From: Octopus vulgaris
Taxonomy: Eukaryota
Assembly (NCBI GenBank): GCA_951406725.2
Contig: OX597828.1
Location: forward strand, 61,256,001 to 61,320,000
Direction of reading: 5' to 3'
Length of the DNA: 64,000 bases
This document shows, piece after piece, positions 8,002-55,325 of this stretch. The first letter of the stretch is position 1; each line of letters begins with the position of its first letter. The notes beneath the pieces are model-generated. The model did not search any database. It saw only the letters and a list, made by a program, of their open reading frames with translations, and had not been told where the DNA came from. The translations under genes were made by a program, and so were the position numbers.

Positions 8002-8073
8002 CGGTTACTGATGAGAAGTTGCCTAGTAAATTATTTTATTTACTAAAAAATTTGAAACCTATAGGTATAACCG
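8002..8073 (+). ncRNA. Type I hammerhead ribozyme, intact core
   Basis: CGGTTA-CTGATGA-[stem II with TAGTAAAT/ATTTACTA]-GAAA-CCTATAGG-TA^TAACCG; 6-bp stem I. Confidence 0.85.
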
Positions 8074-8536
8074 TAAAATCAAGGTAAAAGTTTAGATTTT
8101 TTCATTCCCTTTGAAATTGCTTAAATTTTGCGAGTAGAAATTGCCTGTTATAGGTAATTTCTCTTTGTGTTTAAATGTACACTATTTTATATTGAAGACT
8201 ATTTTATATTGTCGTCTATTGACTTATTATACATGCTAGGCCACTGGTAGTGAAATTTGTAAAAATTTACTACCCTATATATACATATACATACATACAT
8301 ACACACACATACACACACACACACACGCACACACACATATATATATACATATATATAACCCCAAAACACTGTGTAGTATTGGAATGATCGAAGGTTCGTG
8401 ATTGAAATTAGCTCGCTTGAAACTGTGTGGTAGCTTGCCGAATGGACTGCATTGACCGTTGGCGGTTCGACGGCGAACTATTCACTTCTTATATTCCTAA
8501 CATTTTATAGCCAATTACTGCAAACATTACCACTCT

Positions 8537-8870
8537 TACTACTACTACTACTACTACTGCTGCTGCTGCTACTACTACTACTACTACTACTACTACTACT
8601 ACTACTACTACTACTACTGCTGCTGCTGCTGCTACTACTACTACTACTACTACTACTGCTGCTGCTACTACTACTACTACTACTACTACTATTTCTACTG
8701 CTACTGCTACTGCTGCTGCTGCTACTACTACTCCTACTACAACTACTACTACTACTGCTGCTGCTGCTGCTACTACTACTACTACTACTACTACTACTAC
8801 TACTACTACTACTACTACTACTACTACTACTACTACTACTACTACTACCACTACTTCTGCTGCTGCTGCC
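8537..8870. repeat. (CTA)n/(CTG)n compound microsatellite
   Basis: Direct reading; source of poly-L/V/S ORFs. Confidence 0.98.
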
Positions 8871-11800
8871 AACGCGACCGCCAAACACCATCACCACCAC
8901 CGCTATCATCATCATCATCACGTTGATATTTCTTTAAGCTTAGCAAAACATATTTTCCGACTTAAGTAAATAATTATTTGTGAAAAATCAACGTGTCTTG
9001 ACAGAAAATATAACGTGGCGAGAGTTGGATGTCGGCAAACGATATGTGATGGGAATGATAATTATCAGAGTGGTATTCCATGTTTTGGGCAAGTTATTTT
9101 AGAGTCTACCAAATATGGAAGGAATTAAAAACAACGCTTTTACCGTTTGTTTGGGGTGATCATACACACGCGTGCGCGCGCGTATACATACATAAATACA
9201 CGCATACACACACATATACAAACACATGCACAAACTTATTCAACCACACGGACAAGCATATGTATTATGTGGGTAGGTAGGTAAGTAGGTAGATAGAGTG
9301 GTGGGTAGGTAGGTAGGTACTTCTGTGAAAGATGAGTAGTCCATGTATTTACAAGAATAAATAACATTAGAGAATCTATTATGTAATGAAGAGTTGTGAA
9401 GGCAAAGAATGGTTAATTATTCTTTTAGACATAACTTACACTTGCCGATGTTTGCATTGTATGGGGGAGCTTCGCTTACTATGGGCCAGGATAGAGTGTA
9501 TGAAATATTTTGAGATTTTATGTTGTGTATATACGTTGCTAAGGAGACTGATAATATAGAATTTGGATTGGAGGAAGAATTCCTGTGTGAACGGTAGTGG
9601 TGCTTGAAATCTACGGTGCCACCGATATATACCCTTGCTTGGTGGGAGTGTTGTTTTATAACACGGCACTTGTAGATTACATTTTTGCGTAGGCAGGAGC
9701 CTCCAAGTGGGCATACTTGGGAAACCTGACAATTGCAAGTTTTCCTACCTGCTCGATGGTTGGGATTTACTGCTAGCGAGGTTGAGCTCCGTTAGTTCAT
9801 TGTTACTGGGGGAGAACCTGAAGTGAAATTTGTATTTGTATTGGATTGTGAGGTGATATTGCAGCTAGTATTTGTTGTTGCGTCGGTAGGATCGTGGGAT
9901 GATGGTTTGAGTCTGGTATTATTTAATTGAGGGGGGTTACTAAGGGTTGTGTTATTGCTACTATGTGGGCTAATTTGGGATACAGTATGAGATTTTAGTT
10001 ATTCTGAGGATTGGTATTGGAATTCGCAATTGCTCGAGGAGGTGATTATGGATCCTAAACTATGTGTGCTGGAGTAGAAGATTTTCGCGGATGATTTGTT
10101 AAAGATGGCATAGTATTTATGCTGTGGTGGAAAATTAAATTTTAGGATTTTGAAGTAGAGTTTAGGTAGAGATTTAATTTGGAGAGAGAAAGGTGGTGCG
10201 ACCCATTAGATTTCTCTCTTCCTGACCTTAGAATGTTTAGAATGTGTGGTTGTAGTAAGTTTATCAGGAGGGGGTGCTTGTAGTTGTTATAGGCTAGGGG
10301 GCGACCAGTGGGGTAGCCAAATGCGATGTGTAGGGTTTTTTTTTAGAGTTGTTGGGTTACTGTAGAGTGGAAATAGTATTAGTAGATTCAGGGTTAGTAT
10401 TAGGAAAGAAATGTGTTATTTTAGTTTTAATCTTAGTATTGGGGATACAATAGATTTTTTCGCTGAAGCCACTTATTTGGAGGGTCTGATTATAATAACG
10501 GGCGTGAGTGTTAAAAATTTCTACGTTAACAGGTAAGTTAGAGATTCTGATAGATATGACTATGACAACGCTCTTAAGGATAAATTTAGGGTGATTAGAG
10601 AGGACATTTATATATTGTAAAGATTGGTTGGGTTTATGGAAACAGTGATATAGATGTGTGTTTAAGTCGAGAATAACATCTAAGGAATTTGCCACCTTAG
10701 TGTCAATTTCGAATTAAATACTCAGGTTATGATTTTTAAAAAAAGTGTGTAGGGCTTTCTTGGTGCATTCCACTGATGATCGAGATAATCCAATCGCTGA
10801 AAGGAGTGCATCATTCCTGTATAGTCTACCGGAGAGGTTGGAGAAGTATTGTTTAATTTGAGAGAGAAGGAATAGGCCAACTAGGTCAGTAACCTGGGCT
10901 GAGTCCGATACGCTTATGGTTACATTGAAGAAATCCGTAGATGAGTTGCGGGTCCAATTATTATCCTTAAAGTGAATTAGAGTCTTCATCGCAGCCAGGA
11001 TGATATTGATGTCAGATCGGGAGATGGGAATATATTTTCGGGTGAACACTAGGGCTTTATTTAAGAAGATTGGTGGTATTGATGAACAATAATTTGGGAT
11101 GTCAAATTGATGAAAATGGATATGTTGTTTATCATGAAGAGAGTGAAACCAAGTGATAACGTCTCCTGTGAAATTCCAGAGCGGAAGCTTAACGTTAATC
11201 CTAACAAGTGGTAGAATACGGTCAATAATACATTTACTAATTCGATCTAAGTCGGATCTAGAGGAGCAGATGAGTCTAATGGAAGGCTTAGTGTAGAGAT
11301 GAGTCTAATGGAAGTCTTAGAGTAGAGGCGAATCTAATGTAAGGCTTAGAGTAGAAGTTGAGTTTGTAGTCCTTTAGGGTAAAGTGGGGGAATATGGTTC
11401 AGTTCTGGTTAGTAAATTTAAATCGGCGATAAGCTTACACTGGATGTTGTTAATCTCATTAAGGGCATTTTTATGTGTATGTTTTTAATTTGTGTTTAGT
11501 TCCTTTGATATGAAGTTAGTATACGTTTCCAAGGGAAGGGAGTAAAGATTGCCGGTTTTGTCAGAAGAGAGTGCAGGTGTAGTGAAGTCCTTATTTTAGA
11601 TGTAATTTTGGATAGTAATTTTTGGAAGAAATTAGTATAATTAGAGAATTACTATAATTAGATCTTTCACAAAATTAGCCAATGCAGGGTTTGGGGGTGA
11701 GCTGTTGTGGGACTTTAGGTTGTAAGTGTCCTTTGCATTAGAATGTGCAGGATAGTTAGATTTTAGGTCATAGTGTAGGGCTTTCCACCTCATTCGAGTG

Positions 11801-53797: not shown

Positions 53798-54742
53798 CAG
53801 GGGTCGGACAAAATAATGGAAACACCTAGCATCATAGCATCATAATTTTCAAATATCTATAAAACCGTAAAAAGCTTGTTTATTTTTATGTTTTTGATTT
53901 ATTATTAGTGCTGCTTAATATGTTTTGCTAAAACTGCTATTTCTTTTAGATATCATCAGAAAAAGGTTATTAAAATTCAATATAATGACAGATCTATCGG
54001 AGTTTCAAAGAGCTCAAATTTTTGGTACTCATATGGCAGGCGCTAGCGTAACGAAAACAGCCGAAATGTTTGGTGTATCAAGAAGTTCTGTCTCCAAAGT
54101 AATGACAGCCTTGGAGAAAGAGTAAAAAACTTCCTCGTCGAAACAAAGCTCTGGAAGAAAACCAAAACTTTCAGATAGGGACCATCAGACGCTTATGCGA
54201 ATTGTCAGAAAGAATCACAAAAGTACAGCTCCCAATTACTGCAGAGCTTCATGATCATCTCGAGAACCCACTTTCCACAAAAACTGTTCGCTGGGAGCCG
54301 CACAAAGCTGAATTTCACGGGAGGGCTGCAAACAGAAAACTACTATTTTCAAAAACAAACGTTGCAAAGCATTTAGAGTGGAGCAAAAACCTACAGAATT
54401 GGTCCCTATAGTAGTACAAGAATGTTATTTTCTCGGACGAGTCAACCTTTATCTTATTTCCGACCACCGGCCAAGTATACGTATGGAGACAACCAAAAGA
54501 AGTATTTGACCCAGACTGCCTTCTTTCAATTGTTAAACATGGAGGAGGATCTGTGATGATCTGGGGATTATATCTTGGAAATCCGCTGGCCCAATGGTTT
54601 CCCTTTATGGCAGAATTAATTGTCAAGACAATTTAAGCATTTAATCTGATGAAATACATCATATGATTACAGAACTGTTCCGTAAGGAAACGCAATCTTT
54701 CAGAATGATAATGCACCAATTCACACAGCTAAAGTTGTTACT
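53798..54742 (+). mobile_element. Tc1-like transposon, 3'-truncated and decayed
   Basis: TA-CAGGGGTCGGACAAAATAATGGAAAC TIR; MTDLSEFQRAQI.G...GASV; VIFSDES; VKHGGGSVMIWG; FQNDNAPIHTA. Confidence 0.9.
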
Positions 54743-55246
54743 GCCGTATACGTAGGACGTATTCTATCTCTCTCTTGTATCTTTTCTCTTGTCAAAGAAA
54801 ATATTTTCCCAGCGTTCGTTATTTTACCTTCGATCCTCCATGTTTGTCTTCGTTTAGTTTCCTTGTATGTCTCCACTGTCCTGCTTTGTTCCCAACTTTG
54901 AGAAGTAGATTGACAGCCGACAACTGATGTAGGGTCGTCTTTTATGTTACTTGTTCTGTTTTCCATTTGTTTCTCTCGTTGTTTGCGTATTGAATTCATT
55001 TGTTTTCGTATTTCATGTTGTTTACTGTTGGTGACGTCCTGTACCCATATATGCATATGTATATATATGTATATGCTTATTTATATATATGTGTGTGTGT
55101 GTGCGTATATATATATATATATATATATATATATATAAAACAAAGGGAATTTGAACCATAACTGCGAGTATAATCGACTAAACCACACGTGTGTTTGACG
55201 TTATGTTAAAATTTGGCGTGCGGTTTAGTAAATTGTATTCAAGACA

Positions 55247-55325
55247 AATTCTACTGATGAACTATGGATATGTTATGTAAGTAAAATTGCATAATACATT
55301 AATAGCGAAACAATTGTCTAGAATT
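55247..55325 (+). ncRNA. Type I hammerhead ribozyme
   Basis: AATTCTA-CTGATGA-aCTAT...ATAGc-GAAA-CAATTG-TC^TAGAATT; 7-bp stem I; A-C mismatch at base of stem II. Confidence 0.85.

Follow-up and report, generated by a model that had tools for sequence, protein, structure and literature searches.

Palindromic stem III words in hammerhead motifs of Octopus vulgaris repeats: a probable role in pairing between two copies, with the same words reused across families

In a 64,000-nucleotide stretch of the Octopus vulgaris genome (assembly GCA_951406725.2, contig OX597828.1, positions 61,256,001 to 61,320,000; hereafter the window, numbered from its first letter), which is microsatellite-rich and has 36% G+C, a first-pass annotation singled out six places where a short self-complementary word lies between the GAAA of a hammerhead ribozyme motif and its cleavage site, and proposed that this word restricts activation to transcripts of the same family. 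The six sites are motifs of the type I hammerhead carried by short dispersed repeats. These repeats are most likely remnants of the 3' terminal repeats of Penelope-like retroelements (PLEs), and the palindromic stem III of the motifs is likely to let two copies form a double hammerhead that would cut RNA. The palindromic words are real, and the same palindromes are reused by unrelated families, so they are not unique family passwords. As the motif class and the dimer model have both been published, the finding itself is an ordinary one, and the window motifs add further members to a known group.

All six words are present where the annotation placed them, five of them directly 3' of GAAA on the plus strand; the sixth, at 16595, is a genuine palindrome too, but its motif belongs to the minus strand, with its core at 16656 and its cut site at 16593, a palindrome alone reading alike on both strands. 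Each of the six words is preceded by a CUGANGA-type core, a stem II of 14–66 bases and GAAA, and each motif has a UH cut site and a closing stem I of 3–7 pairs, which together give three stems with the open end at stem I and thus the type I layout. The exceptions are family F4, with the variant core CCGAUGA, and F2, F5 and F6, in which the base of stem II is mismatched. The near-palindromes that had been noted alongside them are also real, namely CACCTG at 23348 (plus) and 23103 (minus), CACGTA at 29480 (minus) and CGATTG at 51320 (plus). The hammerhead motifs of the window, with the word that would form stem III, are as follows.

8002–8073, plus strand: type I hammerhead of F1, word CCTATAGG at 8058–8065, 6-bp stem I
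12181–12272, minus strand: hammerhead of F2, in sense and 5' of the PLE frame, word CAGCTG
12420–12510, plus strand: hammerhead of F2, inverted copy, word CAGCTG at 12499–12504, C-A at the stem II base, GUU cut triplet
16590–16659, minus strand: hammerhead of F3 (young, with 96–100% identical copies, some in ~430-bp tandems), word CCTGCAGG at 16595–16602
23089–23185, minus strand: decayed hammerhead, word CACCTG, inverted partner of 23280–23362
23280–23362, plus strand: decayed hammerhead with core TTGAAGA, word CACCTG, family word CAGCTG (7/12 matches)
29466–29560, minus strand: decayed hammerhead, word CACGTA, with CACGTG the most frequent word in its family (6/15 matches)
35885–35970, plus strand: hammerhead about 380 bases 3' of the endonuclease fragment at 35062–35508 and in the same sense, word CCGATGGG, with CCGATTGG in a relative
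37433–37477, plus strand: hammerhead of F4 (young), variant core CCGATGA in most copies, word CACGTG at 37464–37469
51288–51331, plus strand: hammerhead with the G-U-compatible word CGATTG, CAATTG also occurring in the family
51646–51683, minus strand: small hammerhead, 2-base word TA, inverted partner of 51757–51794
51757–51794, plus strand: small hammerhead, 2-base word TA
52134–52216, plus strand: hammerhead of F5, word CGCG at 52205–52208, A-A at the stem II base
55247–55325, plus strand: hammerhead of F6, word CAATTG at 55311–55316, 7-bp stem I, A-C at the stem II base

A descriptor blind to the palindrome found 12 sites in the window, 5 of them with a perfect palindrome of at least 4 bases, whereas 40 dinucleotide shuffles of the same sequence averaged 2.8 sites, with at most 9 in any one shuffle and no palindromic site in any. 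The site at 12499 fails this descriptor (C-A at the stem II base, 3-bp stem I) yet is a clear member of F2; a scan that demands a pair at the stem II base misses 52205 and 55311. An Rfam scan of the window gave 0 matches at gathering thresholds and no hammerhead among the 150 of 270 matches listed at E ≤ 10, which were microsatellite noise; the stems of the window motifs are far from the usual hammerhead lengths. A 97% identical direct repeat (53415–53570 and 54552–54707, 1,137 bases apart) carries CTGATGA ... GAAAC in each copy, without a proper stem III.

Each of the six sites is one copy of a dispersed family, F1 to F6, with a shared stretch of about 300–600 bases, or about 900 in F2 where inverted copies are included. 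Searches of the 2.8-Gb assembly (227 contigs) returned 496–1,184 first-look candidates per family, of which 40 were scored per search. The word is retained in 21/31 distinct copies of F1, 24/29 of F2, 22/23 of F3, 22/26 of F4, 22/31 of F5 and 25/28 of F6, figures to which the queries, containing the word themselves, may have lent a slight bias; copies without it mostly differ by single changes. The word is kept by most copies of each family and is therefore a family trait, so that what had been described as specific to the locus is constant within a family and not peculiar to each site. Around 180 loci, partners within 1.5 kb were tallied, some pairs being fetched from both sides and a few loci falling in two classes: 127 were single, 44 had a back-to-back inverted partner, 13 had a tandem partner and none were convergent. 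The tandem copies all belong to F3 (7/30 loci) and F4 (6/30), and the six window copies lie outside tandem arrays. Inverted partners lie on opposite strands and therefore cannot pair on one transcript; most genomic copies, being solo or back-to-back remnants with no same-strand partner, are probably inactive.

The families also vary outside the word. Young F4 copies (loci L061–L090, 98–100% identity; 37439–37445 in the window) have the variant core CCGATGA, and an abundant family with the word CG often has CCGACGA, while whole subfamilies of F2, F5 and F6 have been amplified despite a mismatch at the stem II base (C-A, A-A, A-C or C-C). Stem II of loci L359 and L372 looks by eye like that of F1, with CCTAGG or CTGCAG in place of CCTATAGG, and L380 similarly resembles F5 with CGCGCG for CGCG; possibly these differences are two-base changes of word length that preserve the palindrome.

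Beyond the six families, an even sample of 140 evenly spaced 10-kb stretches (1.4 Mb) contained 46 strict motifs, against 0, 2, 0, 0 and 0 in five shuffles; its commonest word was the 2-base CG (15/46), and 15 motifs had a perfect palindrome of at least 4 bases. Genome-wide, the core combined with a six-base word running from C to G gave 14,667 pattern matches with a stem II of 12–40 bases (reversed-pattern control 781) and 34,392 with one of 41–70 bases (control 845), or about 49,000 motifs. Five-base words gave 3,194 and 3,180 matches (controls 1,036 and 1,028), far below the six-base counts, and eight-base words 4,280 (control 896), both being upper bounds that include many false registers, such as a CG-word family read past its cut site or a large CACGG-ending family without stem I (L351). 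When the first 100 of the 14,667 matches were read by hand, 70 words were perfect palindromes and a further 12 paired through G-U, where chance would give about 1 in 16. The very abundant L351 family reads CTGATGA ... GAAACACGGTT and has no stem I in the type I register; it may represent another topology or no ribozyme at all. A cluster at G000:C1:13046494-13049452 holds seven hammerhead-like copies at a spacing of about 505 bases, three on the minus and four on the plus strand, in a retrozyme-like arrangement.

That the palindrome serves pairing between two copies is suggested by the geometry of a short stem III, since a six-base hairpin leaves its inner four bases looped and inner complementarity makes sense only in a two-copy duplex. 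To compare families, 52 family rows were reduced, after 5 doubtful parses had been dropped, to one family per clade, giving 43 clades. Of the 30 six-base clades, 29 have a complementary pair 2-5 and 29 a complementary central pair, fractions that are not unbiased, as the 55 short loci behind many of the clade rows were picked by hand from the pattern-match lists, mostly for looking distinct and palindromic. Predicted energies agree, stem III hairpins of seven window words lying between -0.4 and +6.0 kcal/mol as monomers and their self-duplexes between -5.8 and -17.7 kcal/mol. In unconstrained co-folding of two copies, stem III was fully paired, and the double-hammerhead fold predicted to be favoured over the monomer, in 6 of 9 window motifs, the failures being F5 and two decayed copies; for 4 of the 5 homodimers shown, a complete double hammerhead was predicted in which the two strands exchange their stem I arms. 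On this point the first-pass annotation is supported, as the words are palindromic at family level, the inner pairs are kept though a monomer hairpin cannot form them, and the dimer is the predicted fold.

Variants of the words provide a separate line of evidence. Because a palindrome is strand-symmetric, mutation at the DNA level should produce a G-U-compatible variant just as often as the corresponding mirror mismatch. The annotation had suggested tabulating stem III genome-wide in search of compensatory changes, and G-U-compatible variants do exceed mirror mismatches, by 809:260 and 2,758:789 at pair 2-5 (controls 60:34 and 197:35) and by 3,275:472 at the central pair (controls 24:29), or 6,842 against 1,521 when summed. 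Apparently related families span the full series CGATCG, CGATTG, CAATTG and CATATG, CATGTG, CACGTG. From these sequence counts, pairing of the inner bases looks to be under selection, and the dimer reading is well supported by fold prediction and variant counts together.

We envisage that a single copy would be unable to hold a stable stem III, and that two copies would pair through stem III and exchange their stem I arms, the natural partner presumably being the second terminal repeat within one tandem transcript. Selection would then act on self-complementarity alone, and the words would drift through G-U intermediates and hence come to differ among old families. Any discrimination between families would be a by-product, resting mostly on stem I.

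Two other accounts of the palindromes were considered. The motifs might act as monomers, perhaps with a protein of the element, the palindrome being an inherited relic or a mere hairpin: eight-base words allow a 3-bp hairpin (-0.4 kcal/mol), F1 is predicted to fold stem III as a monomer, and an anole PLE hammerhead cut only with added protein and was dispensable for insertion in vitro (PMC11167929, from the part covered). Such an account is very unlikely to be right given the complementarity of bases that the hairpin would leave looped, in nearly every six-base clade, and the strong preference for G-U over mismatch at the central pair. Mutation bias, whether through CpG decay, RNA editing or RT (reverse transcriptase) error, might alternatively have produced the G-U excess and the word changes in motifs that are mostly fossils, with no selection involved. 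The steps from CGATCG to CGATTG and from CACGTG to CATGTG are CpG-type transitions, those from CAATTG to CGATTG and from CATATG to CATGTG are A-to-G changes, which RNA editing gives, and most loci are indeed solo remnants. Against this, CpG decay of DNA affects both strands alike and should make the mirror mismatch just as frequent, whereas the mirror variants are scattered single copies save for one local 11-copy duplication on C2. Nor are sense-strand A>G or C>T changes in excess across the six window families (shared substitutions: A>G 21, T>C 26, C>T 37, G>A 41; single: 86, 119, 59 and 69), and this lack of strand bias argues against editing or RT bias, albeit in families that differ from those carrying the G-U subfamilies, which tells against our own interpretation. 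We regard mutation bias as a highly improbable explanation, and pairing between two copies as the better account of the palindromes.

A different matter is whether the identity of the palindrome is itself a selected signal that limits activation to the element's own family and so yields orthogonal ribozyme pairs, as the annotation supposed. Activation within the family is indeed likely, because stem I plus stem III have diverged, and would be a by-product of that divergence; the palindrome as a code is not supported, its words being reused and colliding at the rate expected by chance. In its favour are the constancy of words within families, the stronger self-duplexes than cross-duplexes of the six named words, and the finding that only 116 of 1,560 ordered pairs among the 40 self-complementary clades are compatible in stem III. 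Against it, CAGCTG occurs in 5 of the 43 clades, CACGTG and CGATCG in 4 each and CAATTG in 3, and identical words occur in 28 of the 435 pairs of six-base clades, where 27.2 are expected for 16 equally used words. Even within the window, the near-palindrome families use three of the six words that had been thought unique, CACCTG being a decayed CAGCTG, CACGTA a decayed CACGTG, and CGATTG alternating with CAATTG; the prevalence of the 2-base CG in the unbiased even sample points the same way. Clades with a common word show no mutual avoidance in stem I, as matches of at least 3 pairs occur in 14/116 (12%) of the stem III-compatible pairs versus 98/1,444 (7%) of the incompatible ones, and these comparisons of word collisions and stem I give no sign of selection for orthogonality.

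Only 4 of 780 unordered clade pairs, L293 with L341 among them, are predicted to be cross-compatible in both stems. Window families sharing a word form 0–2 cross pairs in stem I, compared with 3–7 self pairs in seven undecayed motifs, F6 and the 51292 family being a natural pair with one word and different stems I. G-U variants of a word pair with more than one word. In these models most of the predicted specificity comes from stem I, which is also intermolecular in the dimer. A palindrome selected for its identity is thus very unlikely. It is also unlikely, if a little less so, that the genome is a natural library of more than 40 clades of dimer-only ribozymes that combine stem I with the stem III palindrome into a two-part key, one that selection maintains because it spares co-expressed Penelope families mutual cleavage of their RNA. 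The reading that we prefer remains one of selection on self-complementarity, whatever the word.

The attribution to Penelope-like elements begins with F2, which lies beside coding remnants of such an element in the window; the relevant features are listed here.

9417–9791, minus strand: GIY-YIG-type endonuclease fragment of a broken PLE, 46% identical to the end of an intact open reading frame of 806 residues (L321)
10714–11304, minus strand: reverse-transcriptase-like fragment of the same broken element as 9417–9791
11965–12720, no strand assigned: two terminal-repeat (pLTR) pieces in inverted arrangement, 85% self-inverted, located at the 5' end of the broken element
35062–35508, plus strand: second GIY-YIG-type endonuclease fragment, motifs recognised by eye

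We take 10714–11304 to be RT from its motifs. This piece had 6,667 genomic candidates, of which 150 were scored, with open frames of up to 1,091 residues; intact frames of 680–1,091 residues are akin to the RT and endonuclease fragments of the window, and Atlas neighbours of the PLE frames carry GIY-YIG and RVT_1, some on fewer than half of their members. F2 is placed as a terminal repeat would be, in sense, 0.8–1 kb downstream of the endonuclease at L160, L171 and L172 and, in the window, 5' of the RT frame, and 6 of 30 F2 loci are near a PLE frame, two of them being the window itself, in a proximity search that used the window fragments alone as queries. A PLE origin of F1, F3, F4, F5 and F6 is inferred from their size, their inverted pairs and the literature; the 44 back-to-back pairs of the six families (repeats of 300–900 bases), with none convergent, fit the inverted 5'-truncated PLE copies described in PMC8557442, as far as the available part of that paper goes.

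At L321 (G000:C5:50455500-50460100), an intact PLE-type frame of 806 residues is preceded by a CAATTG hammerhead, 140 bases away, and followed by a TGGCCA hammerhead at a distance of 450 bases. Both lie in sense and come from different families, which makes the locus a natural mixed tandem. The idea that L321 is a recurrent element with two keys was rejected, since each motif has a family of its own (3,207 and 263 candidates) and the 47 and 43 matches listed for them coincide at no further place.

Several results weigh against our overall reading. Pfam scans of the PLE fragments of the window and of the intact frames named neither RT nor GIY-YIG, and a solved-structure search with the PLE frames gave no match. 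The proximity search found a PLE frame within 1.5 kb of 1/30 loci for F1 (the window), 0/30 for F3, 1/30 for F4 (again the window), 1/30 for F5 and 1/30, weakly, for F6, and the 4.6-kb stretches around five intact frames held no hammerhead in four cases. Several families have non-standard bases in the core or at the stem II base, some have words of odd length or words that are not palindromic, and the co-fold failure of F5 concerns one of the six named sites. Amplified subfamilies account for the G-U excess in the first 100 entries of each list, at least three of them carrying CGATTG and two CATGTG; as it is carried by few subfamilies (about five by eye), the independent events are few, and five amplified events against none is thin evidence (two-sided sign test ~0.06).

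The remaining sequence of the window was surveyed by masked self-BLAST for repeats. A 517-residue open frame with PIF1 helicase domains (Pfam) at 32032–33585 (plus strand) is probably a piece of a Helitron, and a second short helicase-like frame, recognised by eye, lies at 39166–39627 (plus). Near-perfect fold-back palindromes occur at 30330–30514, 18010–18055 and 51619–51821, the last holding the pair of TA-word hammerheads. Fragments of a non-LTR (long terminal repeat) retroelement lie at 57140–57604 and 59216–62020 (weak RVT_1 and zf-RVT matches). A repeat that ends in runs of ATT is present three times, at 1–184, 26638–27032 and 63114–63525, and an abundant short interspersed repeat that contains a microsatellite has copies at 14969–15368, 21779–22099, 29670–29998 and 34474–34949.

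The excess of G-U over the mirror mismatch at the central pair would amount to genome-scale evidence for selection on the dimer duplex during copying of the element, and it bears on whether PLE hammerheads matter in vivo, given the one in vitro study in which insertion did not need them (PMC11167929). The families also supply a natural panel of same-word and different-word pairs for cross-cleavage tests or for orthogonal dimeric ribozymes.

The comparison with known systems that follows draws on the parts of the cited papers that were covered. Cervera and De la Pena (2014; PMC4209133) described minimal hammerheads in the terminal repeats of PLEs, with a palindromic helix III, many variable families per genome with compensatory changes, and inverted pairs; their Schistosoma motif showed no cleavage as a monomer and weak cleavage as a dimer. 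The dimer model is set out in the review PMC6765202, which refers to Lunse, Weinberg and Breaker (RNA Biol); PMC8557442 calls the function of PLE hammerheads unclear, and tandem non-LTR retrozymes have been proposed to derive from PLE pLTRs (PMC7229834; bioRxiv 10.64898/2026.07.22.740005). Our literature search, which left most subscription papers outside its coverage, found no family code or heterodimer test in PLE hammerheads, and the covered part of PMC4209133 holds no mirror-mutation test, collision count or heterodimer assay. Some copies of F3 and F4 resemble the non-LTR retrozymes in forming tandem units of 300–430 bp with one type I hammerhead each, an arrangement from which the six window copies differ. 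With the small PLE variants of Lunse, Weinberg and Breaker, as reported in PMC6765202, the octopus motifs share a short palindromic stem III and the association with PLEs, and for those variants cleavage as dimers was reported. The closest resemblance is to the metazoan pLTR hammerheads of PMC4209133, in the type I topology, short helix I, enlarged helix II and small palindromic helix III, and also in the many consensus families with compensatory changes, the mostly single dispersed copies, the inverted pairs 100–700 bp apart, the core variants and the dimer model; what sets the octopus motifs apart is their mostly six-base words, their long stem II inserts (40–70 bases) and their higher copy number, at about 49,000 matches for six-base words.

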